NCBI GenBank assembly: GCA_037200965.1
Contig: JBBCGK010000001.1
Span: forward strand, 433,992 to 497,991
Reading direction: 5' to 3'
From: a bacterium
GTDB taxonomy: Bacteria; Patescibacteriota; Minisyncoccia; Phycocordibacterales; Phycocordibacteraceae
DNA: 64,000 nt
The notes beneath the pieces were generated by a model. The model made no database searches, had not been told where the DNA came from, and saw only the letters and a list, made by a program, of their open reading frames with translations. Positions 38,559 to 57,713 of the stretch are shown here, piece by piece. The position numbers and the translations under genes are program-made. Positions within the stretch are counted from its first letter, which is position 1. Each line of letters starts with the position of its first letter.

Positions 38559-38594
38559 GTTGCACAACCTCCTTTTTACGAACGATCCTGCAGG
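38559..38594. repeat. Array repeat R1 (36 nt, perfect)
   Basis: Exact sequence match. Confidence 0.95.
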
Positions 38595-38603
38595 TTAAAA
38601 GCC

Positions 38604-38912
38604 GTGACTGATTTTCATCGAAAGCACGGCTACGACGTGGGGACCGGGAACATGGCGGTCATGTCGCTCAGAATTGGACTACTCATAGAAGAACTGGGTG
38701 AACTCCACGCCGTGGTTTCAAAGGGTGTTGGCGACATTTCAGAGGAACACGCAGACCTCTTGTATCTACTTCTTGGAAACTGCGTCACGCTTGGTATTGA
38801 TATAGAAACTGCTTTCTTTGCAAAACATGCCATTAACATGCGGAGGGAAGCCAAGGTAGTGAGGGGGAACCGCCGTGTATCGGATTGGTCCCATGAAAAA
38901 TCTCAGGAATGA
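38604..38912 (+). CDS. MazG-like nucleoside triphosphate pyrophosphohydrolase (MazZ-like)
   Basis: ...LIEELGELHAVVSKGVGDISEEHADLLYLLLGNCVTLGID... is the MazG EExxE/D helix pattern. ~100 aa; 4-nt overlap with the downstream PurA-like gene. Confidence 0.55.
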   Translation: MTDFHRKHGYDVGTGNMAVMSLRIGLLIEELGELHAVVSKGVGDISEEHADLLYLLLGNCVTLGIDIETAFFAKHAINMRREAKVVRGNRRVSDWSHEKSQE

Positions 38913-39940
38913 AAGCTACAGTCATCATCGGTGCGCAGTATGGCAGCGAAGGAAAAGGTAAGATTGCAGCTTATCTTTCAGATGAGTTCGCTCGTGCAGT
39001 TCGAACTGGCGGGCCAAACTCGGGGCATACCGTCGAGCGCAATGGCACGTTCTATCAAGTTCGAGCGGTCCCTAGTGCCTTCGTGAACCAACAATGTCGC
39101 CTCGCGATTGGTGCCGGGGCCATAATAAACACTGCCGTACTATTAGGAGAATTAACGGCATGTGGTATTGTCGAGGGGCGTTTGATAGTTGACCCTCAGG
39201 CTGTCATAATTGATGAAGAATATCAAAATTCGGAACTAGATTTAATCAGTTCGATTTCGTCCACCGGACAAGGCGTTGGTGCAGCAATCGCAGCTAAGGT
39301 CTTACGTCGGAAAGTAACTCTCGCAAGAGACGTGCCCGAGTTGCGGCCACTGCTTGCCGATGTTGCTGGCACGATCAATTCCGAACTCCAACAAGGCCTA
39401 GCTGTAATGATTGAGGGGTCGCAAGGATTTTTCTTGAGTTTGCATCATGGTTACTATCCGTTTGTAACAGGCAGGGAAACGACCGCAAGTTCATTTTGCG
39501 CCGAAGTAGGAATCGGTCCCAAAGATGTGGGTCAAGTGATTGGAGTTCTCCGCACCCACCCGATTAGAGTTGGCGGCCCTTCGGGACCTCTTCAAGACGA
39601 AATCGATTGGCAGACCGTCACCGCCGAGTCGGGCTACCCAACACCGCTGTTAGAGATAACTACCGTTACCAAACGAATTCGACGCGTCGGGAGGTTCTCA
39701 ATGGCCGAAGCTAAACGATCTTTGATGATCAATTCGGCGACCCAAATTGCTTTAAACTTCGTCGACTACTTGGACCATGCAAACTTTGGACTTAGAAGCT
39801 ACACCGCACTGACTGCTTCAACAAAAAAATTCATCGACGCACTAGAGACACAAACGGGAGTTCCCGTTTCGCTGGTGGGCACGGGGCCCCGTAACAGCGA
39901 TATGATAGACTTACGACGCGAAAAGAACCTCCCCCATTAG
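38909..39940 (+). CDS. Short adenylosuccinate-synthetase-family protein with GSEGKGK P-loop (PurZ-like, archaeal/phage type)
   Basis: GAQYGSEGKGKI (Ser where PurA has Asp13), GGPNSGHT, EGSQGFFLSLHHGYYPFVT, RVGGPSGP, TVTKRIRRVGRF, TGPRNSD. 343 aa, lacking the long bacterial PurA insertions. Confidence 0.65.
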   Translation: MKATVIIGAQYGSEGKGKIAAYLSDEFARAVRTGGPNSGHTVERNGTFYQVRAVPSAFVNQQCRLAIGAGAIINTAVLLGELTACGIVEGRLIVDPQAVIIDEEYQNSELDLISSISSTGQGVGAAIAAKVLRRKVTLARDVPELRPLLADVAGTINSELQQGLAVMIEGSQGFFLSLHHGYYPFVTGRETTASSFCAEVGIGPKDVGQVIGVLRTHPIRVGGPSGPLQDEIDWQTVTAESGYPTPLLEITTVTKRIRRVGRFSMAEAKRSLMINSATQIALNFVDYLDHANFGLRSYTALTASTKKFIDALETQTGVPVSLVGTGPRNSDMIDLRREKNLPH

Positions 39941-39948
39941 ATACCAGC

Positions 39949-40701
39949 ATGAAAAACCAATACTTTGGCGACTTGAGCGACTATAAGAAGTACGGTTTGC
40001 TGCGCACACTTTCGATTGAGGGTGAGTGCTCGCTCACTGTGTGTTGGATGCTGACGCGAGATGATCAAAGTACCGACGGGCGGCATACAACTTATTTGGC
40101 GGACGTAAGAGAATGGCGCAACCATGAGCCGTTGGTATTTGATCTACTCGCGGACGCAGTCTTCAAAAATTCCCGTAATCTCGAAATAGTTGAAAAGTCC
40201 GGACTAATACCGAACTCAAACTACTTTCGTGAGGAAATCGGCGATGCTCCCTCCCAACGGGAAGCTTTTTTTGCCCGATTGGCAGATGAAGCCCGCAATT
40301 CTGATATTGTGTTCTTGGACCCCGACAACGGCCTTGAAGTGAAGTCAGTCCCCTATGGCTCCAAGGGAGCACATAAGTACATTTATCGGTCTGAAATCGA
40401 AAAGTTATCTCGGAATGGACTTTCAATCTTGCTGTATCAACATTTTGGTCGGAAAGAACGGTCTGAGTTTATCCGAGCTATTGCATTGAAACTCATCGAT
40501 TGGCTGAATGTGGAGGAAGTATTTTCACTTCGGACGACGCATACCGTATTTTTTCTTGTGCCGAAAGCTGCCCACAGGTCGCGAATAGATCGATCCCTCC
40601 AGGCAGTAAATAGACAATGGGGAGATAAGATCTTTATCGAGATACACTCTAAGGAGTCTGTATCAACGGTTACAACGAAAAATCAGTTAGACCTACTCTA
40701 A
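39949..40701 (+). CDS. Hypothetical protein (250 aa) completing the MazG-PurZ-like cassette
   Basis: Clean ORF 8 nt after the PurZ-like stop; lower GC; no HD motif (so not obviously DatZ); unknown function. Confidence 0.45.
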   Translation: MKNQYFGDLSDYKKYGLLRTLSIEGECSLTVCWMLTRDDQSTDGRHTTYLADVREWRNHEPLVFDLLADAVFKNSRNLEIVEKSGLIPNSNYFREEIGDAPSQREAFFARLADEARNSDIVFLDPDNGLEVKSVPYGSKGAHKYIYRSEIEKLSRNGLSILLYQHFGRKERSEFIRAIALKLIDWLNVEEVFSLRTTHTVFFLVPKAAHRSRIDRSLQAVNRQWGDKIFIEIHSKESVSTVTTKNQLDLL

Positions 40702-40774
40702 GTAAGTGAGCAACATGGATATTGGAAAGGAGCCTGACTTCGCCTCGGATGCCTACTTTGATAATCCGCAACAA

Positions 40775-40810
40775 GTTGCACAACCTCCTTTTTACGAACG
40801 ATCCTGCAGG
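40775..40810. repeat. Array repeat R2 (36 nt, perfect)
   Basis: Exact sequence match. Confidence 0.95.
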
Positions 40811-41427
40811 ACGATATCCACAAATCACTGCTGCGCAGCGCGGGCCTCGCGCATCTCTCGGCGGATGAGATTGGGGACTTGAGGGACTTGGCAGCGCATG
40901 AGCTACGGAATGAGACCGCGGACCGCGGTGGTCTCATGGCGGGATTGCGACTGCGCCTGCAACAATGCGACACACGGCTATCACGCCTTACAGACGCGCT
41001 CCTCGACCACCTCATCGAAAAGCAGGAATACGAAGCCAAGAAGGCCGCGCTCCTGGGCGAGCGGCGCGAACTGCTAGACAAACTGGAAAGCCCGGAGGCT
41101 TCGCGTCAACCCGCCGACGGCGTGCTGCAAGCATTGGAACTGCCAGATGTCGTGGAAACACGCTACGAAATGGCTTTGCCGGACCAACGGCGCCGCATTG
41201 CGTCTGCAATCGCTTGGAACCTAACTGGTAGCGGAAAAGAGGCCGTACCTGAGCTGAAATCTCCGTACCGGGAGATCGTACAGTGGCGTCTTTCCAATCC
41301 GGTGCGCCGTAACGGGGAGCGATCGGAACCTGACATAAAGCTGCTATACGAAGCGCTCAAAGAAGTCTGCCGGCGAGAAGACAAGCCGCCGCAACGTCCC
41401 CAACGTCCTGATGTCTCCGGCATATAA
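40811..41427 (+). pseudogene. 5'-truncated ORF beginning inside repeat R2 (C-terminal ~200 aa of a larger protein; coiled-coil, possibly relaxase/recombinase-associated)
   Basis: The reading frame is open from within R2 (…CTTSFLRTILQDDIHKSLLRSAGLAHL…) with no start context. Ends overlapping the T4CP-like gene. Confidence 0.35.
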
Positions 41428-42724
41428 GGCGACATACTTTTTCGAGAATTGTCGCGCCTTATGCCGCGTGAATGTCAGGCAGATGCTGTTCTGCATGGAT
41501 GCGAGCATCAGCTACTTCGCCCGCACCAACTTCCGCAACCGAAACCAGCTCTTCGGTGTGAGGCAAGCCGACCGTCTTTCGCACCTGTACGTCATCGGCA
41601 AGACTGGCACGGGCAAGTCCACCCTCCTTGAAACCCTCGCCCGGCAAGACCTTCGGGCCGGGCGCGGCTTCGCCCTCATAGACCCGCACGGCGATCTCGT
41701 GGAACGGATCGCGAGGGACGCGCCGGAAGCCGTCTATCTGAACGCCCCCGATCCCTCCCAGCCCTTCGGCTATAATCCGCTCCGGAGGGTCAGGGACGAC
41801 AAGATACCGCTTGCCGTCTCGGGCTTCCTCGAAACCCTCAAGAAGCTCTGGCCCGACGCGTGGGGCGTGCGCATGGAGCACGTCCTTAGGAATACGCTGT
41901 ATGCGCTATTCGAGCAGGAGGATGCGCGGCTTCCCGATATCCTCCGCCTCTATGCCGACGAGACATACCGGAAGGCGCTCGCCAAGGGGATTAGGAACGA
42001 TACCGTCCGCCGCTTCTGGCTCCATGAGTTCGAGCACTTCCACTTTCGCCAGAGGGCGGACGCCGTGGCTCCGATACAAAACAAGATCGGGGCGCTCCTT
42101 GCCGACCCCACGCTCTATCGCATCCTCGTCGAGCCAAAGGAGGATATCCGCTTCCGTGCCCTCATGGACGGCGGCGGGGTTCTTCTGGTCAATCTCTCGA
42201 AGGGCAAACTTGGCGAGGACAGCTCGCACATCCTCGGCGCGCTCATCGTCTCGACCCTGGGCCTTGCTGCCTTTAGTCGGGCCGACAGTCCCCCAACCTC
42301 CCGCCGCCCTTTCTTCGTCTATATCGACGAATTCCAGTCCTTCACGACCCTTATGCTCGCCGACATGATGTCGGAGCTGCGGAAGTACGGCGTGGGCCTT
42401 ACCTTGGCGCACCAATATATGCACCAGCTTGAACCCGAGATACGGCATGCGGTTCTGGGGAACGCTGGGACGCTCATATCATTCCGTGTTGGCCCCGAGG
42501 ATGCGTCAATCCTGGCGAAGGAGTTTCAGCCGACGTTTGACACACACGATCTCCTGAACCTGCCTAACCACCATATCTATCTGAAGCTGATGATTGATGG
42601 GGTGCCGGGCGGGGCGTTTAGTGCAAATACAGTCGATCATTCGACGCGGGGAGAGACAAAGCTCGCACCGCTACGAAGGACTTCAGACTTGAATGCGGGC
42701 GAAAGCGCGTCTGACTATGTGTGA
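41411..42724 (+). CDS. FtsK/HerA-superfamily ATPase resembling type IV secretion coupling protein (TraD/TraG/VirD4-like, no TM domain)
   Basis: Walker A YVIGKTGTGKSTLLETL; Walker B FFVYIDEFQSF; C-terminal LAHQYMHQL similar to the T4CP QS..QL motif. Confidence 0.55.
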   Translation: MSPAYKATYFFENCRALCRVNVRQMLFCMDASISYFARTNFRNRNQLFGVRQADRLSHLYVIGKTGTGKSTLLETLARQDLRAGRGFALIDPHGDLVERIARDAPEAVYLNAPDPSQPFGYNPLRRVRDDKIPLAVSGFLETLKKLWPDAWGVRMEHVLRNTLYALFEQEDARLPDILRLYADETYRKALAKGIRNDTVRRFWLHEFEHFHFRQRADAVAPIQNKIGALLADPTLYRILVEPKEDIRFRALMDGGGVLLVNLSKGKLGEDSSHILGALIVSTLGLAAFSRADSPPTSRRPFFVYIDEFQSFTTLMLADMMSELRKYGVGLTLAHQYMHQLEPEIRHAVLGNAGTLISFRVGPEDASILAKEFQPTFDTHDLLNLPNHHIYLKLMIDGVPGGAFSANTVDHSTRGETKLAPLRRTSDLNAGESASDYV

Positions 42725-42859
42725 GCGGGATCACGTTTTTTTGCAGATGGCACGCCCGCGTGGGCTGTTTTGGTAATTGCCATAGCGTCTTGGCAACAAC
42801 TGGGCGTCAGTACCTGGCTTCCCTCACAGGTTGAATATATTACAGTATAGCTCAACCAT

Positions 42860-43864
42860 ATGTTGAGTCGCCGCATGCCCGGTATTACCGAATTACTTTT
42901 GAAAATCGCGCCCAAGATCGGCGCAAAAGTGCTGATCGAGCCTGAGTGGGGCTACGTCGGGCAAATCGCCTTCCGAAGCGGTCGCAAGCGGTACTTCCGG
43001 TTCTCCAGCGTTGACGTGAATACGCTGGGCGCATCGGAAGTCGCGAAGGACAAAGATTTTGCGAACTTCTTCATGAAGCACATGGGTTATCCCATCGTGA
43101 AAGGAAAAACGTTCTTCCGGGACGACTGGGCAGAGACAATCCGCTCCAAGCGAAAGATCACGGCCGCCTATCGATACGCGCGACGGCTGGGATTTCCGGT
43201 GATTGTGAAGCCTAACAGCGGCAGTCAGGGGAAAGCAGTATGCTTGGCTCGCACGAAGCGTCAATTCTATCGCGGAATGCGGGCGACCTTTGAGGTGGAC
43301 AAAGTCGCGCTTGTCCAAATACCTGTTTCAGGAAAAGACTACCGCATCGTGGTCTTGGACCGAGAAATCATTTCGGCGTACTACAGGGTTCCGCTAAGCG
43401 TCGTCGGCAATGGAAAAGCTTCCGTAGCGGCGTTGCTCAAGTCGAAGCAGAAAGAGTTTCGGCGCGCCGGGCGCGACACGGCGATCAGGGCCGACGATCC
43501 GCGCATAGCGGAAAAGCTCGAGCATCAGGGACTGAGCTTCGCTTCCGTTCTCCGAAAGGATCAAAAGGTTTTTCTTTTGGATAACGCCAACCTTTCGACG
43601 GGCGGCGAATCGGAAGACGTAACGGAAAGCGTGCACAAGGAGTTCAGGAAAATCGCGGTGTCGCTTACGAGGGATATGGGACTGCGCCTGTGCGGCGTCG
43701 ATCTCATGATAGACGGGGATATCTCGGAGCCGCCCAAAACGTATTGGGTGCTTGAAGTCAATTCGGCCCCGGGGCTCGATCATTATGCGAAAAGCGGCGC
43801 GGCACAAAACAAAATCGTCGAAAAGATGTATACGACGGTGCTTAAGAGCTTGGATCGTGACTAG
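42860..43864 (+). CDS. ATP-grasp family enzyme (RimK/cyanophycin-synthetase-like ligase)
   Basis: ...GFPVIVKPNSGSQGKAV..., ...DYRIVVLDREIISAYYR..., C-terminal ...LCGVDLMIDGD...YWVLEVNSAPGL. Confidence 0.55.
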   Translation: MLSRRMPGITELLLKIAPKIGAKVLIEPEWGYVGQIAFRSGRKRYFRFSSVDVNTLGASEVAKDKDFANFFMKHMGYPIVKGKTFFRDDWAETIRSKRKITAAYRYARRLGFPVIVKPNSGSQGKAVCLARTKRQFYRGMRATFEVDKVALVQIPVSGKDYRIVVLDREIISAYYRVPLSVVGNGKASVAALLKSKQKEFRRAGRDTAIRADDPRIAEKLEHQGLSFASVLRKDQKVFLLDNANLSTGGESEDVTESVHKEFRKIAVSLTRDMGLRLCGVDLMIDGDISEPPKTYWVLEVNSAPGLDHYAKSGAAQNKIVEKMYTTVLKSLDRD

Positions 43865-43956
43865 CTCGTGTATAGTCCATACGACCGATCTTCCTGACAC
43901 CAATAGGCATCGGCCAAATCGTGATTGCTGACCAACGTTTTGCGCCGAGCGACCGC

Positions 43957-44247
43957 CTAGTCGGGATCGTAGGGATTATTGGTATCCGTGCCATTGCGCG
44001 AGGAACCAGACGGCGAACTATACGGATCGACGCGCTTGTGACCTTGCTCGCCCGTATAGGGGTTCACGTTTGGATACGTCGAGTAATTGTTATAGGGATT
44101 GCTGTCAGGCGATGAGCGATGGTGTGGCGGAACATACGTGCCGTCCTTCCGCACATAGCCTCTGACACTGACGTCCTTCGCTGCCGCCTCAGCGCCAGTG
44201 GCCAGCAGGGTCGTGAAGACCAAAAGGGCGGCAAAAATCTTGCGCAT
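43957..44247 (-). CDS. Small secreted Pro/Tyr/Asn-rich protein
   Basis: Signal peptide MRKIFAALLVFTTLLATGAEAAA; then low-complexity PYNNYSTYPNVNPY. Confidence 0.4.
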   Translation of the reverse strand: MRKIFAALLVFTTLLATGAEAAAKDVSVRGYVRKDGTYVPPHHRSSPDSNPYNNYSTYPNVNPYTGEQGHKRVDPYSSPSGSSRNGTDTNNPYDPD

Positions 44248-44357
44248 ATTAACTCCGATCAAAAATGCGGCTCGATGCTAGTTTAGTGGCTGGCGCAGGG
44301 CCAGAGGAATAATCTTCGCAAGCGTGCGTCAGGCCACGCCCTACGGTAACGCGTCGA

Positions 44358-45341
44358 TCAGTTCGCCTCGTCGAAAATCCCATTCAGGATCGCCCCAAGC
44401 CGCACCCCTGCCGCCTGCAAGCGCTCTTCCACGATGGCGGCGCGGTCTTCCTTGTAGTTGCCGTCGGGCGCGAAGACGCGAACGGCGCCACCGGTATACG
44501 TCTCGCTGTCTTCGGAATAGCGGCAGGTGGTGCCGGAGAGCGTACAGTATCCGGTGTCGGGCGCGCGGGAGACGGTGAGCGATTCGTTGGCCCATACCAT
44601 CGGATCGAGCGACGCCTTCCACGTTGCCCGCTGCTCGTCCGTGATTTCCTTTTGAAGAACATTGCCAAACGCCTCGCGCCCAGGGCCTGCTGGCTTCGTC
44701 TGCGCGATGTGGAGATCACGCATGACTTGTTCGGGAATGCAGGTGTCCCACACGGTATGGAGCGCGGTTTTGCCGTCATAGGCGCAGCCCGAGACGCCCT
44801 TCACGCCGACGCTGTTGCCGCCGCGATCATCGGCATACGAAATGTGGAGCGGCTGGTGTATGTCGCCGAGCCAGTGCCCGAGGAATTTGAGGGCCGTGCG
44901 CTTCTTGTCGGTTGAGGCATTCGGGTCTTTGAGGATGGCGATATCGGCGGGGATGGCCGTGAAAAGGCACGTCGCCGCATTCACGCACTTGGCCTCGGGG
45001 AAGCTCGTCCAATCGCGCGGCATATTGATGAAGTGCTCCGCCCTCCGGCTGCTTTGCACATCGCCCTTCTCGTCCGGCCAGGTGCAGGCCCCGTGGAAGG
45101 TTCTCGGTATCTCCTTGCCGTCAGCGTCCTTAAGCGGGGTTTCTGAGCGGATAAGCTTGTTGACCGCCTTGCGGGCCGTCGGCGTGAGCTCCTTGTATGC
45201 GATCTCGCAGACCGCCTCGTGGCCGGTGCCGCCGAAGGCGAGGGCACCGCTCGTTGTGAGACAAAGACTGACGAAGCCACCAGCTCCAAACAGCGCAAGA
45301 AGAACCCGCCGACGTCCACCCATGTACCCGCTCCCCCTCAC
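44358..45341 (-). CDS. Secreted S1/P1-family zinc-dependent nuclease
   Basis: N-terminal signal, then the ...FGGTGHEAV... (W/GH motif) and ...LKFLGHWLGDIHQPLH... zinc-ligand motifs characteristic of S1-P1 nuclease. Confidence 0.7.
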   Translation of the reverse strand: MRGSGYMGGRRRVLLALFGAGGFVSLCLTTSGALAFGGTGHEAVCEIAYKELTPTARKAVNKLIRSETPLKDADGKEIPRTFHGACTWPDEKGDVQSSRRAEHFINMPRDWTSFPEAKCVNAATCLFTAIPADIAILKDPNASTDKKRTALKFLGHWLGDIHQPLHISYADDRGGNSVGVKGVSGCAYDGKTALHTVWDTCIPEQVMRDLHIAQTKPAGPGREAFGNVLQKEITDEQRATWKASLDPMVWANESLTVSRAPDTGYCTLSGTTCRYSEDSETYTGGAVRVFAPDGNYKEDRAAIVEERLQAAGVRLGAILNGIFDEAN

Positions 45342-45453
45342 TATTCGTGCCCAGGATGCGAGGACTCGCCCTAGCCGAAGAACGGATGATGCCCGGATGA
45401 TTTCACCCGTCCAAGAGGAATGTGCGCCTTAGACTTCGTATCGGGCCGGGCCT

Positions 45454-46359
45454 ATGCTGCTTCTATTGGTGGGGTGTTTCTCAGGGGGTATTGGCATGAC
45501 TAGCGGCACGCGAGTTTTTCCGACGCGTTCGTATCGGGCATCATTTCCCATTCATGCGCTTCTTGCCGTCTTCGCGCTTCTCGTCGCGGGTGCGTATGGC
45601 CCGGCCGGTTCGGCCTTGGCCGCGACCAGCGCGGCGTCCTTCTGCCTTGACGCATGCCCCGAGGGCGCGCCGGCAAAGAACAAGACGGTCGTGCACCATG
45701 TCTATGCGCTCAGCTCGAACCCCGACACGAAATTCGCCGATTGGGTCGCGTACAAGATCTCCAAAGCGACCATCGGGTCGAACTGTTCGCGCAAGTGGGC
45801 GAAGGACCCGGACCTAGCGGCCGGCACCACGCTCAAGCCCGCCGATTACAAGGACATCAGTGCGGCGCTCCAGTCCGACCGGGGCCATCAAGCGCCCTTG
45901 GCAAGCCTATGCGGCTCGAAGTTCAATGCCGAGGCGAACTATCTCTCGAACATCACCCCACAAAAGTCCGACCTCAATCAGGGCGCATGGGTGCGGCTCG
46001 AAACCGCCGAACGCAAGCTCATTACGGGCGGCACCGCGAAGACCGTGTATACCGTCACCGGGACGCTCTACGAAAAGAAGATGCCGCCGCTTCCCAAGGC
46101 GAGCGTCAAGCACAAAGTCCCTTCGGGCTATTGGAAGATCGTCGCCGTCGAGACGGACGACGGGATCGACGCCGTGGCGTTCGTCATGCCGCAGGATACA
46201 CCCAAAGCCGCCGATTATTGCGAAACGCGCACCACCATCGGCGACGTTGAGACGCGCTCGGGCCTCAAGTTCTTCCTCGATCTCAACGAGACCGACCGCA
46301 CGCAGCTTGAGGAGAGCGAGGCGAAGACCGGCCTCTATGAGGATTTGGGCTGCGAGTAG
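45454..46359 (+). CDS. Secreted DNA/RNA non-specific endonuclease (Serratia NucA family)
   Basis: Signal-anchor, then SDRGHQAPLAS (the DRGH catalytic motif) and downstream Asn/Glu residues. Confidence 0.7.
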   Translation: MLLLLVGCFSGGIGMTSGTRVFPTRSYRASFPIHALLAVFALLVAGAYGPAGSALAATSAASFCLDACPEGAPAKNKTVVHHVYALSSNPDTKFADWVAYKISKATIGSNCSRKWAKDPDLAAGTTLKPADYKDISAALQSDRGHQAPLASLCGSKFNAEANYLSNITPQKSDLNQGAWVRLETAERKLITGGTAKTVYTVTGTLYEKKMPPLPKASVKHKVPSGYWKIVAVETDDGIDAVAFVMPQDTPKAADYCETRTTIGDVETRSGLKFFLDLNETDRTQLEESEAKTGLYEDLGCE

Positions 46360-46381
46360 CACGAGCGCGGGAAGATACGGC

Positions 46382-46669
46382 ATGCGCAAGGCATTCATAC
46401 TGACGCTGGTGGCGTTCTCCGCACTTGCGGCAACCCCACTCATCGCGCGGACCACGGATGCGGAAGTCCGGGGACAAATGATCCGCGAGTCCATCGCAAG
46501 CTATCCCGGCAACTGCCCGTGTCCGTACAGCACGATGCGAAACGGGCGCTCCTGCGGCGGGCGAAGCGCGTACAGTCGGCCCGGCGGATATGCTCCGCTG
46601 TGCTACCCGTCTGACGTTTCGGACGATATGGTGCGCGGCTATCGAAGCACGCATGGGCTCGGGAACTGA
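46382..46669 (+). CDS. Small secreted Cys-rich protein (95 aa)
   Basis: Signal peptide MRKAFILTLVAFSALAATPLIA; 6 Cys; begins 20 nt after the nuclease stop. Confidence 0.35.
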   Translation: MRKAFILTLVAFSALAATPLIARTTDAEVRGQMIRESIASYPGNCPCPYSTMRNGRSCGGRSAYSRPGGYAPLCYPSDVSDDMVRGYRSTHGLGN

Positions 46670-46865
46670 TCGATCCGATTGATATCTGGCGAAGCGCGCA
46701 AACGCTCATCTCGCTCTATGGCGATGAGGCGGAACAGTTCGCGCTTCGCCGCGCCGCTACCCTGCTCGGCGAAGGAGACCGGGAGGGCCATGCGGCAATG
46801 GCAAGCGTTGCGGAAGCGGTGAAGAAGCTGCGGCAGGAGCGGCCCGAAAGCGGCGATGCCGTCCA

Positions 46866-47273: not shown

Positions 47274-47349
47274 TCTCAATCCCGTTATACTATCGATCTC
47301 GCAAATTCTATGGCGCGAAAACCCCATTGTCGCGCGCAATCTCAGCCTG

Positions 47350-48333: not shown

Positions 48334-48434
48334 CTTCCGTCCCTTGGCTTCCGGGCGGCGATAATCGAATGGCAATTTAAGCTCCGGCAACAAAAAAATG
48401 CATAAGGCGCCAGGCGGCGCCGTGGAGTAATTCC

Positions 48435-49601: not shown

Positions 49602-49603
49602 GA

Positions 49604-49840
49604 GTGCTCGACATGGCCGGAACGCTCGATTGCTTTGTCCGCCTTGTTGAACTCGACACCTGCGTGCGTGAGTTGGCACAGCGCAAGCGCGCGAATAATA
49701 GGATCAGCATATCCGATCTTGATGACGTTCTCCTGGCGCTTGCTGAAGCTCGGGAAACGATCCAGGACGACGCGTATGACGAGATGGCGAGGCGGCGAGC
49801 GATAACAACGGCGGACATAATGCAGTTCGCAAAAGATTAG
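49604..49840 (+). CDS. Small hypothetical protein (78 aa)
   Basis: ORF 2 nt after the GNAT stop; no domain. Confidence 0.25.
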   Translation: MLDMAGTLDCFVRLVELDTCVRELAQRKRANNRISISDLDDVLLALAEARETIQDDAYDEMARRRAITTADIMQFAKD

Positions 49841-50107
49841 CGAAAGCGCGCGGCTCTATTCAAAACGCGGCCTACGACAAGTTCGCAACTATTCGTCCGA
49901 CAACACTCGCCCGATAACGGATCATTCGGCAACCAGAGGATAATGAGTATATCGCGGGAGCGAAGCATAGGAGACGATGCAGTGCATAGTCCGTCATAAA
50001 TTCAACGGCGGCATCCTGATGGTAGCTGTATAACAGCGTGGTGCCGGAACTTCCCCTTGTAGCCAATACCGGGCTTCGTTACAAAGCTTCAAGGGGAGGC
50101 TATATGC

Positions 50108-51743
50108 ATGCTTAATCACACCTTTGGAGTGATCTCGCTGGGTCGTTTCCTCACTGCTATACGTCCTGCGCGTTATGCGGTCCGCTCTGCCAATCGAACA
50201 CGCTTCGGCCAAGGGCTGGTCTCGGTCCGCACCCTAGTCGTCGCTGCGTGCGTTGCAATGAGTTGGCTAGCCGCATTGCCGCAAGCCGCCATCGCGAGCA
50301 GCGTCTTGATGAGCGTGCCAGGCGAAAGCGACGTAAACTCGGCGGGTGCCTTCACATATTCACTTCCTATTGCAGTTCCGCCCGGGACTGCCCGCATCGT
50401 ACCGCGACTGTCGCTTGATTATTCCAGTCAAAGCGGCAATGGCCTCCAAGGCCTCGGCTGGTCGCTTTCCGGATTGCCGGCAATAGGAAGATGCGCGCGC
50501 ACGGTGGCGCAAGACGGCGTGCATGGCAGTGTCAATTACGACGGCAGCGACAAATTCTGCTTGGAAGGCCAGCGCCTAGTCGCCCTAAGCGGCGTCTATG
50601 GCGCGAACAATACGGAATATCGTACCGAAATAGAGAGTTTCACCAAAATTATTTCATACGGAACGGCGGGTAACGGGCCAGCCTCGTTCAAAGCGTGGAC
50701 CAAGTCCGGTCAAATCCTGGAATTCGGAAACACGGCGGATTCCCGTATCGAAGCGGTCGGCAAGACAACGGTGCGCGCGTGGGCCGTCAATAAGGTTTCC
50801 GATGCCAAAGGAAACTACGTCACGGTCGAATACACCGACGACCAAACTAACGGAGAGGCGTATCCGGTTCGGATTGATTATACCGGCAATCCCAACGCAA
50901 CGCCGGTGGTTATGCCGTACAATTCCGTGCAGTTCACATACACAACGCGCGCAGATATCACGATTGCCTATCAGGCCGGTTCGCAGCAGAAGATCACAAA
51001 ACTTCTCACCAATATTAAGACTTATCAAGCCGCGAATTTGGTTTCCGACTATCGCCTTGCCTATCAAGCCGGCTCATCGCTCGCACATTCGCGTCTAACG
51101 TCCATCACGTTATGTGATGGGTCGGGTACGCCGGTATGCCTTGCCCCCACGACCTTTGGCTGGCAGGGTGGCAGCGGTAGCCTGCCGACAATGACCGGGA
51201 CCGCATCCACTATCATTCCGACGCAAAGCGGTGATTTCAACGTTGACGGATTAACAGACCCCTTTGTCAAAGCCCCGTATTTTGGAACTCAGAGCGGAAC
51301 GTTCGTCGCGAGCGGCATGACTATAAGCTATACCGACCCCATATCGGGATTGCCGTGGTCGGGTCTAACGGCTTTCCCCAACACAATGGTCGGGTTTGTA
51401 TTGGGTGATACCGACGGAGACGGGTATAGCGACGTCACCGCGATGCGGGGTATCGCACATGGCGCTTATGCCAGGTTGGTGGTTACGCGCAACGACCAGC
51501 TCGGAAATCTTGGTCAGATCGGCCTGATCGATCCGCTGCATGCTGGCGCCATATTCAGCGGCGACTTCAATGGAGACGCGCGCACGGACGTTTTCGTGAC
51601 GGGTGTAGCTTCTTATAACAGTACGACGTATCTGAGCCTGGGGACCGGATCGTTCACCGCCATCAACATGAGTTCGGTATATGAACCCATCACGACCGCC
51701 GATTTTGATGGTGACGGATGCACCGATTTCTTGGGATCGACTA
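50108..51743 (+). pseudogene. N-terminal fragment of a Tc-toxin TcB/SpvB-like protein with FG-GAP/VCBS-type repeats, truncated by repeat R3
   Basis: SLPIAVPPGTARIVPRLSLDYSSQSGNGLQGLGWSL (SpvB N-terminal signature); GDFNGDARTD, DFDGDGCTD repeats. The ORF runs without a stop into R3 and then into nonsense. Confidence 0.6.
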
Positions 51744-51779
51744 GTTGCACAACCTCCTTTTTACGAACGATCCTGCAGG
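51744..51779. repeat. Array repeat R3 (36 nt, perfect); truncates the SpvB-like gene
   Basis: Exact sequence match; translated in frame as CTTSFLRTILQ at the end of ORF 50108. Confidence 0.95.
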
Positions 51780-51793
51780 TTTCCGTTAATCTT

Positions 51794-53134
51794 CTAAGTC
51801 TCTTGTTGAGACGCAACACAGCCCCACGCCGCTTTTACCGAGTCATAGATAAAGCCTACCGTCAGAACCTTGGATATAACCGTCGTGGTTGGCAACGCCG
51901 TGCCTTCTGCCACGAACGACGCCCCCCAGGTAATCGCCCGGGCCGTACCGTCGTCTTTGATCCTGAAGATGAGCGTCTGGAAGTTCGTGGGTGTACCGGA
52001 GAGATTTGTCGTCATCGACGTGATCGCGGTCGCAAGAGCAGTAATCGTCACGGCGTCGCACCCATCGCTATTCACTGTAGGGGTTGCCGAAGAAACAATC
52101 GTCGTTATGCGTGGAGTATTTCTCTTATTTGCAAGAGTCTGTGTACCATTGTTAGTCACGACACTGTCAGCGTTTGTGCCTGCAACCGAGATTCTCAAAT
52201 CTCCTGTTCCAACGGTAAGCACTCCTGAGGTGTGCGTTGCAACCCAGTTACCGTTACTAATGTTCCAGGTAAAACCAGTAGCACTAAAGAGATCGGCCCA
52301 TCCAAGCGCGGTCGTCCCAAGAGCGGCAATATCATTCGTGACCGGGGAAAGAGCGGAGGAGGTAAGTTGTATCGTTCCTGTTCCGTTGATAGCCAGACCA
52401 AGCGTATTGGTTGTAGGAAGGTAGAGGCGATTACCGGTAGCAGTTGAAGAGGTAGGAGCAAAGCCAGCCGCAGTTGCCAGCGATGCCAACGTCAAAGCTC
52501 CGGCGTCGGTCAAGGTTGCATTGGTGGATGTTGCTTGTGCGCCGCGCGAAGTACCATCGGACCGAAGTATAGATTCATCTGTGGCAAAAGTGGCGGCAGC
52601 GGTGACTACATTACTCGGTATATCGCTTGTAAGAGCGACGGTACCCGTGGACGCCGGAAGGGTAATGGTGTTAGTTCCAGCGATTGCCGTAGGGACGAGG
52701 GCGATGGTACCGGAAGTTGAACCCGAGAAGGTTACACCCTGGGTACCGGAAATGATGCCAGTGGTGTCAGCAATAAGCACTGCCGAGTTCTGGATCAGCT
52801 TACCAGTGGTAGTGTCGAAGCGGGCCACGGCGTTATCAGTTGCTGAAGCCGGGCCTACAACATAGGTAGCAAGGGAAGCAGTCGTAGGAATAACATAGCC
52901 GCTTTGGAGCGCTATAGCGATCGTTCCGGAAGTAGTGATCGGTACGCCGGATACCGTAAGTCCTGTCGGTACCGTAGCGTCAACGGATGTAACCGTACCT
53001 CCTCCTCCGGGGAGGTCTATAAGAAGCCTGTGCGTCGTCGGGTCTGCATATAGACGCACAGGCGTCTTGCCGTCAGCGCTTGAAGCTGCTATCAGCGTTG
53101 GAACATCGTTCTGGTCTCGGTAAGCATCAGCCAT
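51794..53134 (-). CDS. Thr/Ser/Gly-rich beta-repeat protein resembling a phage tail fibre/adhesin
   Basis: 446 aa; N-terminus ...IAASSADGKTPVRLYADP...; low-complexity T-rich repeats (…TSGTIALVPTAIAGTNTITLPASTGTVALTS…). Confidence 0.45.
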   Translation of the reverse strand: MADAYRDQNDVPTLIAASSADGKTPVRLYADPTTHRLLIDLPGGGGTVTSVDATVPTGLTVSGVPITTSGTIAIALQSGYVIPTTASLATYVVGPASATDNAVARFDTTTGKLIQNSAVLIADTTGIISGTQGVTFSGSTSGTIALVPTAIAGTNTITLPASTGTVALTSDIPSNVVTAAATFATDESILRSDGTSRGAQATSTNATLTDAGALTLASLATAAGFAPTSSTATGNRLYLPTTNTLGLAINGTGTIQLTSSALSPVTNDIAALGTTALGWADLFSATGFTWNISNGNWVATHTSGVLTVGTGDLRISVAGTNADSVVTNNGTQTLANKRNTPRITTIVSSATPTVNSDGCDAVTITALATAITSMTTNLSGTPTNFQTLIFRIKDDGTARAITWGASFVAEGTALPTTTVISKVLTVGFIYDSVKAAWGCVASQQET

Positions 53135-53136
53135 AA

Positions 53137-53298
53137 TCAGGTACTTTGTACGAGTAATTCCCCGGCACTATTGGCGTAGAGCACCACAGGCGTCTTGCCG
53201 TCAGCGCTTGAGACAGCCATGAGTGCAGGAACAAAGTTTGCGTCCCGCAGATCGTCTACCGGCCCAAAGTCCGACCCGGTAGTGTCGTCGTCCGCCAT
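53137..53298 (-). CDS. Short N-terminal paralog fragment of the tail-fibre-like protein, starting next to repeat R4
   Basis: ...VPALMAVSSADGKTPVVLYANSAG... mirrors the N-terminus of the 51794-53134 protein (...IAASSADGKTPVRLYADP...). Confidence 0.3.
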   Translation of the reverse strand: MADDDTTGSDFGPVDDLRDANFVPALMAVSSADGKTPVVLYANSAGELLVQST

Positions 53299-53327
53299 AA
53301 GCGCATGTGTTGAAGGGTCAGCAACGA

Positions 53328-53363
53328 GTTGCACAACCTCCTTTTTACGAACGATCCTGCAGG
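53328..53363. repeat. Array repeat R4 (36 nt, perfect)
   Basis: Exact sequence match. Confidence 0.95.
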
Positions 53364-53460
53364 AGTATGAGTACTGATACCGTCCAATCTGCCATTGAAT
53401 ATGCGCGACACTCGCCGTCGTGACGACGTTGAGTTAAGTCAATGGCGATTTATGTTACTG

Positions 53461-53982
53461 TCACCGGACCGGCACGAACCCTTCGGGAAGAAACTGCGTC
53501 GGGTCCTTCCACGGTTCAATAGCAACTGCTTTGGGGTATTTGCTTATCATGTAAGCATCGGTGCAATACACCAAACTTTCGGGATCATCGTCCGAAGGCT
53601 CAAGGCCTGAAAATTCAACCATCACAGATTTCTGGTTGGTAATTTTTCCAAAGGTGTCAATGAACCGCTTGATTTTGTCAAACTCACGCACAAAATCGTC
53701 GGGCTCAAATAGATAGGAATACACTACTACTGTATTCTCGCCGACGATCCGTTCGGAACCGTCCTCATTTTTCACGCGGAAACGCCCAGCGGCGAGCGGC
53801 AATTGGGTTACACCGCCATTGATCCGCACCATAATTTCCATGGCGCTATCGACCCATTTGTCAAAATTTTCAACAGGCTTCTGATCGCGATCTTGGTTAG
53901 GCAAATAAACTGCAAACCGTTGTACCGATTCAGATGTATCGGCACCTAGCGCGGTCTTGAGGTCAAAATCTACGAGCGCCAT
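53461..53982 (-). CDS. Hypothetical protein (173 aa), low-GC
   Basis: Clean ORF; no domain recognised. Confidence 0.45.
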   Translation of the reverse strand: MALVDFDLKTALGADTSESVQRFAVYLPNQDRDQKPVENFDKWVDSAMEIMVRINGGVTQLPLAAGRFRVKNEDGSERIVGENTVVVYSYLFEPDDFVREFDKIKRFIDTFGKITNQKSVMVEFSGLEPSDDDPESLVYCTDAYMISKYPKAVAIEPWKDPTQFLPEGFVPVR

Positions 53983-54068
53983 GATCGCTTCCTATTAGCC
54001 ATCAATGAAAAGGCCCCATAGCCGGGGCCTTAAAGTAGGCAAAATGCCAAATTGCAACGCTGATGCCG

Positions 54069-54725
54069 CTACCGCGGTCTTGAAGGTCTCCGAATTCCGA
54101 GCACCGTTTTAGGGTCCCGCTTGATCTTTAGAAACCGTCCAAATCCCGAACGAGCGTCTTCAGGTTTCTCCGCTTGTTGGGAAGCTGAACGAATCGCTGT
54201 CACTATCTCGTTAGCAGCTTCTGATATGGGCGGCAAATTTTGCCGGTTATAGTCGCCTGGCGGGATTCCCGCGTGCTTCTTTTTCATATGATTTTCTCCT
54301 GTTTCTTCACAGGGTTGCGACCCATCGGTCTCAGCCCCGTGTTGATCGGGAGAAAGCCCTTCAAGAATCGGGCCGCGTACGTCGGTTTCCCAGGTTAAGG
54401 CTTCGACGCGAATATCCTGGCCACGGTCCGTCCTTATGCTTTCGCGATGGGGACCATACCCACATAGTACCACAGCGGCATGCGTAGTCGCGCCCGAAAT
54501 CTCGTGGACTATATCCGCAGCAGCGCCAATACCAGCGCCCGTTACTATCAAGTCATAGACCATCAAGATGCGATCACCGGAAAGCGGTTTGTCTGCCGTT
54601 ATTGCTACGCCCTTCGCCCAACGCGTCTCGCGATAGATGCAGGCGGGCAATCCGGTTTCGGCGACGAGGGACGAGAGCATCGAAATCGCGCCGACCGGCC
54701 CCATCTCTTTTTCGATAAAGCACAA
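54069..54725 (-). CDS. Phosphoribosyltransferase (type I PRTase) domain protein
   Basis: ILMVYDLIVTGAGIGAAADIV is the PRPP-binding motif (VLLVDDVLTTGGT-like). Starts 13 nt from repeat R5. Confidence 0.55.
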   Translation of the reverse strand: MCFIEKEMGPVGAISMLSSLVAETGLPACIYRETRWAKGVAITADKPLSGDRILMVYDLIVTGAGIGAAADIVHEISGATTHAAVVLCGYGPHRESIRTDRGQDIRVEALTWETDVRGPILEGLSPDQHGAETDGSQPCEETGENHMKKKHAGIPPGDYNRQNLPPISEAANEIVTAIRSASQQAEKPEDARSGFGRFLKIKRDPKTVLGIRRPSRPR

Positions 54726-54738
54726 TCGCGTAATGCCG

Positions 54739-54774
54739 GTTGCACAACCTCCTTTTTACGAACGATCCTGCAGG
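54739..54774. repeat. Array repeat R5 (36 nt, perfect); truncates the patatin-like gene
   Basis: Exact sequence match; read through as SCRIVRKKEVVQ by the minus-strand ORF. Confidence 0.95.
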
Positions 54775-55372
54775 AAACCATGAGAGAACCCGAGTTGATC
54801 TCGGTGGCCACGATCTTCAAAGGCGACAACTCGTTAAATTCCTCATAGTTCAGGTCAGCGAACCGAATTCGATCAGGCACTCCATCGTGATCACGACCAT
54901 TTGCGGCATATAATTCCCGCATACGTTCTCGAAGAACTGTGTTGATGAATTCACGAATGGGCGTTGTGGTGAAAAAGCCTAAGTGCCGCCATATGCGCAG
55001 CATTCCAAACGTAACTAGGGGAGCTGTTAAAAAAGACAATAATACACCCCCCAACGCCGTAGCGGACAATGCCCATCGAAGTCCCTGGCGGAGGCGAACA
55101 AATCTACGCCAATCATCAGCCCCCAATAACGTTACGGGGGTCAAGTTATGTAGGCTGAGAATATTTTGATCCCTAATGTCGGGATTCATCAAAGTCGAAG
55201 CACTGTATCCCGCCGCGACTAGCGTTGCCACGATCGCGCCAGCTGACGCCCCGGCTACACCTACGAAGGCGAGCCCATTCTTCGCGGCACCCTCCAAAGC
55301 ACCAATATGCGCTATGCCCTTAGCACCGCCACCTTCGAATATGCCAAAGGCTGGCCTCTTAGCGTCCATCAC
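54775..55372 (-). pseudogene. Patatin-like phospholipase, 3'-truncated by repeat R5
   Basis: GIFEGGGAKGIAHIGAL (oxyanion-hole GGGxxG) and GASAGAIVA (GxSxG nucleophile). The ORF is read through R5 before the catalytic Asp (DGG) region is reached. Confidence 0.6.
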
Positions 55373-55505
55373 TGTATGTATCCTTTCGCAAATCAGGTCG
55401 GGGCCTGCACAAACGACAGAACATCGGACAGGCTGGTGAAATAATGAGATACCAGCCTTCGCACATTGCTGTTCCGCATACAGATACAGCAGTTGCTAGT
55501 TCAAA

Positions 55506-57077
55506 TCAGTTCAGTTGCTCCCGCACCAACGAAAGATCGTTGAACAACGTTCTCGTAAGATTCGGGATTTTTTCCAGTTTGTCTGCTTGTATTAACTTCG
55601 CCATAAAACGAATGCTTCCCTCCACTCGCTCGTCATAGAATATTTCGTGCAGAAACTTCCGCCCCTGCCGCAAATCCGTAGCATCAAACAGAAATTCCAG
55701 CTTGGCTTCGTTATCGACCATAGCAACTGCACGCCAAAAGAATCGAGGAAAATTCGCTGTCAGGAGGCTCTTGCGGACTATCTTGCTTAGGGAGGAGCGC
55801 GAAACAATCTCGCGTTTCAGATCGCTTGGGCCATTCAAAAATATGTCCCACTCGAAACGAGCCATATCACTATTGCTCGATAATTTTTTAAGCATCTCTA
55901 AAATATGATCAAATGCCAGGATAGCATCGTACACGTCGTCAAATCGGACGCGAATTTTGCTATAGAGCGGCACGAGACACAAATCCGCGCGAGCACGGGT
56001 TATCTTCGTCCCACGCTTTCGAGACCAAGTTGTCGTTATGATGTTAGATGGGCCGCTCAGCTTGATCTCAGAGTATGGGCCGATGCCGTCGTCATGCGCA
56101 TACAGTTTGGTTATGCGCGTCGCCCGTAGAAGAAAACCCGTGCGAGGTTCGGGTACTATGGGACCAGTTGTGGGCCCAAGGCCGCTGAGTGCGACCGCGT
56201 GAAATGCTCGTTTGCTTTTCTTGGAGCGTTCTAAGTTGAAGTCAAAACTCAGAATGATCGGAATATTGCCCCTCAAGAATGCATTTGCTGCGGCTTGGAT
56301 ATTGGCTCGCTCGGGCGTCATAAACAAATCCGCTTCGAGACCGACATTGCGCAAAACGCCAGCCATTTGATCGATATCCAAGCCGTCGTTCGGGAGAGCT
56401 AGGCCAGCTGTTGGCAGCGAAGCAAACGCTCGTTTGGTTATTTCAATAGGTGATAAGATTGGATTGTCATACAAATTCGCCGTGCCATGCAGTGTAGTCC
56501 ACAGAGCGCTGGTAGCGCATGCGCCAACCTCTCGGTCTTGTTCTTGAAAAGGCAGCGCACGTACAGGCAGATCTATGCCGAAAAGATTTGGTACATATCC
56601 GCGCTCAGTGAGGAAGCGACTCGATGGATTACTCCCAACCGGCGCCAAACACGTTCGCCCAATGATGGTTTCGGGAAGAGGTTTGACAACTACAAAGCCG
56701 TGATATCCCAAGACGTCGAACCTACACTCACCGCGGCCCGAAACGAAAAGCGCTTCGACCATATCTTTATCGAACGGTTGCCGAAAAAAGTGAATTCGTG
56801 AACATTCTTTCGGATAGTTCGCGTGGCATCTCGCGTAGTATCCTGTATGATCTTCGGCGAAATGCTTGTCGATGTAGTCGCGCTCAAATACAAGAGTTTC
56901 GATTTTCGCGGCTTCACAGTAACGAGCTAGAAAAATGACCTGGGGCTTTTGTGCAATTTGCTCCAGTCTAGGTTTAAATGCTCCGGCAACAAAAAGCGCT
57001 ACCAAGTTCTCTCGATTGTACTTGAGTACTTGGTAGCGCTCGCCCATGTGATCTAACTGAATATCCGCGTACGTCAC
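55506..57077 (-). CDS. Hypothetical protein (523 aa) with a possible Cys-His peptidase-like motif
   Basis: Large clean ORF in array segment E; GACATSALWTTLHG is the only suggestive motif. Confidence 0.45.
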   Translation of the reverse strand: MTYADIQLDHMGERYQVLKYNRENLVALFVAGAFKPRLEQIAQKPQVIFLARYCEAAKIETLVFERDYIDKHFAEDHTGYYARCHANYPKECSRIHFFRQPFDKDMVEALFVSGRGECRFDVLGYHGFVVVKPLPETIIGRTCLAPVGSNPSSRFLTERGYVPNLFGIDLPVRALPFQEQDREVGACATSALWTTLHGTANLYDNPILSPIEITKRAFASLPTAGLALPNDGLDIDQMAGVLRNVGLEADLFMTPERANIQAAANAFLRGNIPIILSFDFNLERSKKSKRAFHAVALSGLGPTTGPIVPEPRTGFLLRATRITKLYAHDDGIGPYSEIKLSGPSNIITTTWSRKRGTKITRARADLCLVPLYSKIRVRFDDVYDAILAFDHILEMLKKLSSNSDMARFEWDIFLNGPSDLKREIVSRSSLSKIVRKSLLTANFPRFFWRAVAMVDNEAKLEFLFDATDLRQGRKFLHEIFYDERVEGSIRFMAKLIQADKLEKIPNLTRTLFNDLSLVREQLN

Positions 57078-57538
57078 ACTGTGAACGGGATACGCCGACG
57101 GTCAGGAGAAATCTGGTTGGCTTGTTCTCGACTTTCAATTGCCTTGAGCATTGGCGAAAGACGCTTAGCGACTTGCGCAGTAAGATCAGTTCTGGAGGCC
57201 GTCGCCTTGGACTTGGGCCGTGCAGAACTCTTCGTCTTTTTGTGACGCATAGCGCAACCTCCAATTTCGGTGAGCAGGATGTTGCCCTCAGTTCCAGCCC
57301 GGCGGGTATAAACTCCAACACGGGGATCAAAATCAAGCTCATGGACTTGACTTCCTGGAACGGGGCCGCCTAGGGCTCCCCTGTAACGAATCAGCCCTGT
57401 TCTTAACGTACCACGAGCGCCTTCGTATCCCCAATATTTTGTATGTGGATAATCCACCAACACAAGTTCTTTGAATGGTGAGGCTGGCCGTTGCCTTTCC
57501 TCAGTGGCGTCGCCGTCCGTTGACCCAATCGCCTGCAT
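57074..57538 (-). CDS. Hypothetical protein (154 aa)
   Basis: 4-nt overlap with the downstream 523-aa gene; no domain. Confidence 0.3.
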   Translation of the reverse strand: MQAIGSTDGDATEERQRPASPFKELVLVDYPHTKYWGYEGARGTLRTGLIRYRGALGGPVPGSQVHELDFDPRVGVYTRRAGTEGNILLTEIGGCAMRHKKTKSSARPKSKATASRTDLTAQVAKRLSPMLKAIESREQANQISPDRRRIPFTV

Positions 57539-57677
57539 AACAATTTAATGCCTTCCTTCTGGCAGCAGACCACTAGGAGCGGCAGACGGCCGTTCATTAT
57601 CAGCGTGGATCATTGGCTGGACCGAGCCCCAATCGGTGACTGATTCGTACGGCTAAAGACCGCTCGGGTCAACTAAG

Positions 57678-57713
57678 GTTGCACAACCTCCTTTTTACGA
57701 ACGATCCTGCAGG
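57678..57713. repeat. Array repeat R6 (36 nt, perfect), cas-proximal
   Basis: Exact sequence match; 32 nt from the cas2 stop codon. Confidence 0.95.

Follow-up and report, generated by a model that had tools for sequence, protein, structure and literature searches.

A repeat array beside cas1 and cas2

What could have placed five stretches of DNA, different in composition and in gene content, between six perfect copies of a single 36-nt repeat directly beside cas1 and cas2? The question is raised by a stretch of 64,000 nucleotides (nt) from a member of the Patescibacteriota (family Phycocordibacteraceae; contig JBBCGK010000001.1, positions 433,992 to 497,991 of the forward strand), referred to here as the window. 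The order of the locus is metG, cas1, cas2 (both on the minus strand), a 32-nt leader, the six repeats and then tatD. We consider it probable that the locus is an array derived from CRISPR, in which five unrelated foreign fragments are stored as very long 'spacers' by an adaptation module that captures long DNA without a length ruler.

All six copies of the direct repeat GTTGCACAACCTCCTTTTTACGAACGATCCTGCAGG (CCTGCAGGATCGTTCGTAAAAAGGAGGTTGTGCAAC on the cas strand) are exact. Numbered from the copy nearest to cas2, they occupy positions 57678..57713, 54739..54774, 53328..53363, 51744..51779, 40775..40810 and 38559..38594, the last and most distal of them lying 16 nt upstream of the tatD start codon. 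No further copy was found in the window at up to 10 mismatches, and the exact 36-nt sequence had no match in species-representative genomes or in Joint Genome Institute (JGI) metagenomes. The window repeat alone folds at -10.4 kcal/mol, and no consensus RNA structure was predicted over 23 repeat variants. The repeats delimit exactly the five segments, A to E, that an earlier sequence-only reading had distinguished in this region. From cas2 outward, these inserts are E (54775..57677; 2,903 nt), D (53364..54738; 1,375 nt), C (51780..53327; 1,548 nt), B (40811..51743; 10,933 nt) and A (38595..40774; 2,180 nt). The orientation of genes is mixed across the segments, recognisable genes are cut at at least five of the ten segment ends, and no segment has homology to another or to the rest of the window. 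Searched by megablast, the whole array had no match in phage and plasmid collections, and a PADLOC scan of the segment proteins returned weak or partial matches only.

The arrangement recurs in independent data. Contigs 73 and 139 of GCA_015655515.1 reproduce the junction between the backbone, a repeat and segment A as well as the order cas2-E-D-C-B, at 99.97-99.98% identity, and a contig of GCA_015689235.1, compared by gene order and not by DNA, is consistent with the start of segment B. Logan contigs of 2,180, 2,208 and 1,604 nt correspond to single segments.

The cas1 gene (58039..59094, minus strand) encodes a protein of 351 amino acids (aa) that matches the Pfam family Cas_Cas1 (PF01867) with E=1.1e-63 and 215 bits, the cut-off being 22.3. 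Residues E181, H241, D253 and E256 are invariant across 30 homologues and, as mapped from their spacing, would be the catalytic residues. The best solved relatives are all of the Cas1 family, namely 4n06, 7cr6 and, third (E=4e-35), 6opm, which we take to be a casposase. A basic insertion of about 20 aa (RKPLGGGRRRKRGTAVKLLRV), at residues ~25-48 of the window Cas1, is missing from most homologues.

The neighbouring gene (57746..58042, minus strand) overlaps the end of cas1 by 4 nt and encodes a 98-aa protein that we classify, from profile comparisons, as a divergent Cas2. The Pfam CRISPR_Cas2 profile matched it with E=0.0034, under the curated cut-off. When a profile of the 98-aa family was searched against the PDB, Cas2 chains made up 11 of the 13 matches, including the top 11, with weak E-values of 0.0016-0.15. 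Alignment of the same family by hhalign with the bona fide Cas2 of canonical relatives gave a probability of 97.9% (E=5e-13). The N-terminal YD motif is lost, and the CKDYGL and CxxC motifs are kept. A single-sequence structure model of the protein was unusable, with a predicted local distance difference test score (pLDDT) of 48. The leader (57714..57745, minus strand) comprises the 32 nt from the cas2 stop to the first repeat. Most of 23 loci have GGCT, or a sequence one base away from it, immediately ahead of the first repeat, and internal repeats are preceded by unrelated sequence.

Set beside the features by which CRISPR loci are recognised, the window locus is a partial fit. Near-identical direct repeats of ~23-50 nt beside a leader are represented by six perfect 36-nt repeats, a Cas1 with catalytic-type residues is accompanied by an adjacent, divergent Cas2, and the inserts are unique and foreign-derived, as indicated by an exact donor for segment A, phage-like content in segment C and the lack of mutual homology. 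Short, near-uniform spacers of ~26-72 nt are replaced by inserts of 1,375-10,933 nt. Linked genes for CRISPR RNA (crRNA) processing and for an effector were absent: no other Cas family of Pfam was found in the open reading frames (ORFs) of the array, nor within 10 kb of cas1 in the window and four related loci, five loci in total.

Segment A is an exact copy of an internal piece of another genome

Direct evidence for the origin of an insert comes from segment A (GC 0.485; GC denotes G+C content). Over all 2,180 nt it is 100.000% identical to positions 8647-10826 of a locus (L054) that forms part of JBBCBH010010880.1, a contig of 4,003,360 bp. This contig belongs to another organism and comes from the same metagenome assembly (GCA_037975565.1) as the 960,259-bp contig that holds the window. 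Identity extends from the base that follows one repeat to the base that precedes the next, and in the donor nothing resembling the repeat borders the homologous stretch on either side.

The stretch lies inside an integrative element of the donor, which carries TrwB, AlpA, a relaxase, a serine recombinase and a tyrosine integrase. Segment A carries the last 102 aa of a 297-aa AAA_18+PRA-PH gene at one edge and the first 60 nt of a cytochrome P450 gene at the other. Since both of these genes are complete in the donor, the direction of transfer was from the donor to the array. Between them lie two genes, one for a PurZ/PurA-like protein of 343 aa (phrog_1211, E=6e-72) and one for a 250-aa protein without assigned function. 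That the donor is a Rhizomicrobium-like alphaproteobacterium from the same sample is shown in part, and the named relatives of a chromosomal glycosyltransferase beside its integrative element are Rhizomicrobium, at ~70% identity. The copied stretch has a GC of 0.47-0.51 within a region of 0.57-0.66; thus, GC is a poor guide to the donor, because the piece taken up is itself a low-GC patch there.

The PurZ/PurA-like protein, an adenylosuccinate synthetase by similarity, the MazG/PRA-PH-like pyrophosphohydrolase domain and the 250-aa protein form an operon with the cytochrome P450 inside the integrative element of the donor (L054 8071-11975), and the cargo of segment A (window 38604-40701) may be a nucleotide-modification module.

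Segments B to E

Segment B (GC 0.596) runs from a serine-integrase C-terminal fragment (phrog_95, profile positions 458-549 of 651), in a frame that is open to the repeat edge, to an SpvB/FG-GAP gene that is cut after 545 codons at the repeat. Many homologues of the latter are ~900-950 aa long and have an additional TcdB_toxin_midN domain. Its named relatives are Bradyrhizobium, Rhizomicrobium and Thiobacillus, all Pseudomonadota; it was the sole B protein searched in this way. Between the ends, Pfam families identify a TrwB/HerA-like ATPase, an ATP-grasp protein, an S1/P1 nuclease, an Endonuclease_NS, HTH_3, LysR and GNAT proteins. Genes are cut at both edges of segment B, and the genes that it carries are proteobacterial in character; it is therefore foreign and not chromosomal. 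Other proteobacterial mobile DNA is its likely source, and a distant search of B against plasmids gave short, weak matches only. The two nuclease genes (window 44358-46359), for the S1/P1 nuclease and a DNA/RNA non-specific endonuclease, encode hydrophobic N-terminal stretches that by eye resemble signal peptides, and such nucleases could aid nucleotide scavenging in a reduced genome.

Segment C (GC 0.541) encodes a 446-aa phage tail-fibre-like protein that matches phrog_3030 with E=9.5e-23, has 379 relatives in IMG/VR viral contigs and resembles phage proteins in its C-terminal part; phage DNA is the likely source. A 74-nt direct repeat of 74% identity in this segment (53046-53119 and 53174-53247) shows that the 5' coding end of the tail-fibre-like gene is duplicated just upstream of it. 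Segment D (GC 0.516) holds genes for proteins of 173 and 218 aa, the second in a frame open to the repeat edge (222 codons). Segment E (GC 0.506) starts with a patatin gene truncated by the repeat, matching Pfam Patatin profile positions 2-118 of 191 with its ORF running into the repeat, and holds two further genes of 523 and 154 aa. No family matches were obtained for the genes of segment D or for the non-patatin genes of segment E. An exact-protein look-up revealed no donor for B, C, D or E.

Compositional mosaic of the array

The sequence-only reading had reported that segments A, C, D and E are markedly lower in GC than the backbone and segment B. Composition was computed over the exact inter-repeat intervals, the backbone being the window minus the array and minus the ribosomal RNA (rRNA) operon (37.1 kb). 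The backbone GC is 0.584, so that the ~60-65% judged by eye was an overestimate. Against backbone windows matched in size, A and E stand out as clearly low (z=-5.1, with none of 614 windows as low, and z=-4.6, with none of 570, respectively), D is moderately low (z=-2.9; 2.0% tail) and C is marginal (z=-2.0; 5.1% tail). Hence, the reported direction of the difference holds, but the contrast is 4-10 GC points and not ~13-15, and C, at 54.1%, falls outside the ~45-52% that had been assigned to these segments. The view of segment B as host-like at ~60% or more agrees with its computed GC (z=+1.4).

Codon usage separates the same four segments. GC at third codon positions (GC3) is 0.48 in A, 0.51 in C, 0.53 in D and 0.51 in E, compared with 0.70 in the pooled backbone and 0.72 in B. 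The codon-usage distances of A, C, D and E to the backbone (1.56, 1.39, 1.62 and 1.54) all exceed the largest backbone jackknife value of 1.16, and that of B (0.53) is inside the backbone range. After normalisation for GC, tetranucleotide usage correlates with that of the backbone at 0.45 for A, 0.16 for C (the most deviant), 0.57 for D and 0.56 for E. Segment B, despite its host-like GC, also falls just short of the backbone by this measure, its r of 0.858 being lower than in any of the 19 same-size leave-out windows of the backbone (0.898-0.952). Thus, B resembles the host in GC and codon usage, but its oligonucleotide signature is not entirely host-like. Its r to the flanks of the alphaproteobacterial donor is 0.882, compared with 0.787-0.869 for backbone windows against the same flanks, and its GC is close to theirs (0.61).

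The mosaic is real and beyond chance. Foreign origin, which the sequence-only reading took from it, is supported for the segments and shown directly for A. Segment C has phage-like content, and the segments have no sequence in common. The independence of these origins, also claimed, does not follow from GC alone, as low-GC A and high-GC B possibly came from similar alphaproteobacterial donors. The tie of the mosaic to the adjoining cas1-cas2 pair did not figure in that reading.

Related loci

The window Cas1 has hundreds of close relatives, in hundreds of clusters at 90% identity. The named ones are nearly all from Patescibacteria (Kaiserbacteria, Paceibacterota, Adlerbacteria, Nomurabacteria and others), and a few metagenome-assembled genomes (MAGs) with a relative carry the labels FCPU426 or 'proteobacterium', which are unverified. 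All related loci examined that have sequence downstream of cas2 (Cas1 38-85% identical) carry a homologous repeat of 37 nt that begins no more than a few hundred nt beyond this gene and has the consensus CCTGCA-N9-TCGCA-AAAGGA-N-ATTGTGCAAC, and most of these loci have the GGCT-like leader junction.

The spacers of this Cas1 clade range from 140 to 10,933 nt, with a median of ~1.5 kb (38 spacers in 16 arrays), and further spacers of 183, 550, 7,672 and ~4,760 nt were found in metagenomic loci. No spacer of 30-40 nt or of other canonical length was seen in the loci examined, several of which lie on contigs of 0.3-0.9 Mb. Spacers at the short end of this range (140 nt) are devoid of genes. The longer ones cut ORFs at their ends as often as random positions do: the run without a stop codon that touches a spacer end had a median of 127 codons (31 long spacers, 14 arrays), versus 129 at random interior positions (Mann-Whitney p=0.71). 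No conserved motif, whether an inverted repeat or one resembling a protospacer-adjacent motif (PAM), was detected at spacer ends, and no homology was detected between spacers of different arrays. In the other arrays, most spacers have a lower GC than the host, and cas modules that are near-identical (93-100% DNA identity) carry wholly different spacers.

More distant Cas1 relatives (no more than 35% identical), from Methanospirillum, Methanocalculus, Bacteroidales and metagenomic contigs, adjoin canonical arrays with a period of 72-79 nt. Their repeats are similar and 37 nt long, for example CTTGCATAAGGGTTCCACAAAAAACAAGGACTGCAAC. In the Methanospirillum locus (L045), the sole canonical locus that was scanned for genes, type III-A csm genes and cas6b lie beside the array.

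The module is multi-copy in one MAG, CAVYRH01, which contains at least three copies of a 1,504-bp unit (L025, L029 and L035, 9899-11402 in each) that are 99.7-99.9% identical. Each copy comprises a hairpin-like left end (TGTCCACGACGGGGACCC...), followed by cas1, cas2 and the leader, and has a single repeat, at the last base of which homology ends. This suggests that the cas1-cas2-repeat module is itself mobile or has been duplicated. The unit is not bounded by a target duplication of 8 nt or more. In another locus (L002; Cas1 82% identical), an 18-nt direct duplication, AGGGAGTATGAGCGGGAT, flanks a cas1-cas2-single-repeat module at 9969-9986 and 11419-11436, and none was found around the module in 10 other loci. 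In an Adlerbacteria MAG (L008/L017, 10001-15662), cas1-cas2 with a 4.2-kb spacer lies within a ribosomal-protein operon, between rplE and rpsH.

Proposed mechanism and alternative explanations

The inserts would have been placed by Cas1-Cas2. In the mechanism that we propose, this integrase would have lost the length ruler of canonical adaptation complexes and would join both ends of any available double-stranded fragment, of ~0.14-11 kb, at the leader-proximal repeat, which would be duplicated at each insertion as in CRISPR spacer acquisition. The identity of all repeats would be explained by this repeated duplication of the leader-proximal copy. Fragment ends would be random with respect to genes and to sequence, and the inserts would therefore carry whole genes in either orientation, genes cut at the edges and the composition of the donor. 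Possible functions for such an array are an integron-like gene-capture platform, an archive of host or phage DNA, or none, as a neutral by-product of DNA uptake.

With about even confidence, the proposal can be widened to the whole clade. Its widespread, mostly patescibacterial Cas1-Cas2 would be a natural integrase without a ruler, inserting arbitrary double-stranded DNA of 0.1-11 kb at a 36-37-bp site that it duplicates. It would then be a CRISPR-derived counterpart of integrons, serving as a gene-capture platform and as a record of the DNA that the cell has met, including that of its bacterial host, and would be a living example of the intermediate that evolutionary scenarios place between casposons and CRISPR.

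Several points weigh against long-fragment capture by Cas1-Cas2. The tie between these proteins and the insertions is one of association, and the two assemblies of the window organism have identical array content and so show no turnover. Known Cas1-Cas2 complexes measure their substrate, and a single complex would have to grasp both ends of fragments as long as 11 kb. Among the five segments, a donor was identified for one, and the nine spacer genes tested from three further arrays yielded none. An effector may be encoded elsewhere in the genome, outside the scanned 10-kb surroundings. Many related loci consist of a single repeat with no insert. Finally, a repeat abuts a truncated cas1 in three loci, L037 (9966-11120), L171 (~2230) and L204 (~6093). 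In the first of these, a repeat is followed by cas1 from nt 285, cas2 and the leader, and in the last, cas1 residues 1-115 are followed by the repeat. Such loci might have arisen when the module captured itself or when arrays recombined with one another, and together with the multi-copy unit of CAVYRH01 they imply that recombination or mobility of the module also shapes the loci.

Four other explanations were weighed, and even taken together they appear rather improbable. The one that survives best, though we regard it as unlikely, takes the 36-nt repeats to be attachment sites of a recombinase encoded elsewhere, the segments to be circular elements or cassettes, and the adjacency of cas1-cas2 to be incidental. 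Gene-bearing units between direct repeats beside an integrase-type gene do resemble integrons or tandem islands, a spacer of one related array (L001) holds a Phage_integrase gene, and segment B starts with a serine-integrase fragment. However, no intact recombinase was found in or beside the window array, and segment ends cut genes at the rate of random positions. Segment A is an arbitrary internal piece of a larger donor element and lacks repeat-like edges, the 140-nt spacers are gene-free, and the repeats, unlike attC sites, are identical. Furthermore, cas1-cas2 adjoins every array, and the repeat is homologous to genuine CRISPR repeats.

Slightly less credible again is a decayed CRISPR locus, whose short spacers were lost or disrupted by later mobile DNA and whose Cas1-Cas2 is a relic, not the inserter. 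The lack of a linked effector, the loss of the Cas2 YD motif and the many single-repeat loci would fit such decay. Against it, the six repeats are perfect, remnants of short spacers were seen beside none of them, and the identity of segment A to its donor spans the interval from repeat to repeat. Strong conservation of Cas1 extends across hundreds of clusters at 90% identity and includes invariant catalytic residues, and more than 15 independent arrays would need to have met with the same accident repeatedly.

That segment B is ordinary chromosomal DNA between two arrays, one of A alone and one of C-D-E, is very unlikely. The sequence-only reading had left room for this, or for B as a different kind of insert, and the host-like GC, GC3 and codon distance (0.53) of B speak for it. 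Yet B is bounded by the same perfect repeats as the other segments and has genes cut exactly at both, it carries LysR, a TrwB-like ATPase, an SpvB/FG-GAP toxin-like protein and a serine integrase that suggest proteobacterial mobile DNA, its tetranucleotide profile falls below all backbone windows and nearer to the donor flanks than any of them, and neither repeat 4 nor repeat 5 has a second cas module or leader beside it.

An assembly chimera, in which contigs of different organisms were joined at a shared 36-nt repeat, is hardly credible: repeats are classic misjoin sites and A has an identical counterpart on a second contig of its assembly, but that contig lacks the repeat at the edges of the homologous stretch, junction and segment order are reproduced in other assemblies, and the same architecture occurs in many MAGs of different projects, including contigs of 0.3-0.9 Mb.

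Comparison with known systems

With CRISPR adaptation modules, the closest canonical relatives found being those of Methanomicrobia with their arrays, the window locus and its relatives share the conserved Cas1 residues, a Cas2 homologue, a short leader with a conserved junction and unique foreign inserts. Also shared are identical repeats of 36-37 nt, with ends (CYTGCA...GTGCAAC) resembling those of the canonical relatives, and array content that differs completely between near-identical cas modules. They depart from CRISPR in their spacers, which are 140-10,933 nt long, non-uniform and gene-bearing rather than ~35-40 nt, in the lack of a linked cas6 or effector, in a Cas2 without the YD motif and in the many single-repeat loci.

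Casposons likewise tie a Cas1-family integrase to kilobase DNA insertion with target duplication, and the multi-copy 1.5-kb unit in one MAG is a further likeness. Here, however, Cas2 is present, the insert is arbitrary foreign DNA and not the element itself, and the duplicated target is 36-37 nt. The target duplication of casposons is ~14-15 nt. An identification as a casposon was ruled out, as the segments lack a family-B polymerase and the inserts lack conserved or inverted termini.

The likeness to integrons lies in a fixed platform beside an integrase gene, an array of unrelated and often foreign gene units, short recombination sites and a compositional mosaic. The integrase, in contrast, is Cas1-Cas2 and not IntI, the sites are identical 36-mers and not variable attC hairpins, and the units are random fragments with cut genes in both orientations instead of complete promoterless cassettes. 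An integron was also ruled out, the platform having no tyrosine recombinase, the repeats being identical and genes being cut at segment ends. Tandem integrative islands were rejected in turn: A, C, D and E contain no intact integrase, and A is an internal fragment of a larger element.

A literature search for long or gene-carrying spacers, or for gene capture by Cas1-Cas2, which did not cover all subscription journals, returned only general mentions of stand-alone adaptation modules. No published description of such long-spacer loci was found. To our knowledge, standard CRISPR finders cap spacer length, and long-spacer arrays have probably been overlooked by them, which could account for the absence of an earlier description.

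If the proposed capture is correct, a short and fixed spacer length is not intrinsic to CRISPR integrases, which bears on how DNA is measured and on the evolution from casposons to CRISPR. It would also mean a previously unrecognised route of gene transfer into the very small genomes of episymbiotic bacteria. As the arrays would keep exact copies of the DNA of cohabitants, they could link uncultured Patescibacteria to their hosts. A two-protein system this compact (351 and 98 aa), if able to place kilobase DNA at a defined 36-bp site with no need for homology, would, in addition, be of practical interest.

Other features of the window

A backbone gene of 246 aa just after recA (33418-34158) matches no Pfam family and has no flanking repeat, and with a GC of 0.47 and a GC3 of 0.45 it is as atypical as the array segments. 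The rRNA operon (window 1-2093 and 14762-20235, minus strand) is interrupted. Matches to the 16S gene are split into 1-837 and 1571-2093, separated by an ORF at 740-1483, and the 23S gene spans 4.3 kb and holds a group I intron (16313-16529) as well as ORFs. Such interrupted rRNA operons are typical of Candidate Phyla Radiation genomes.

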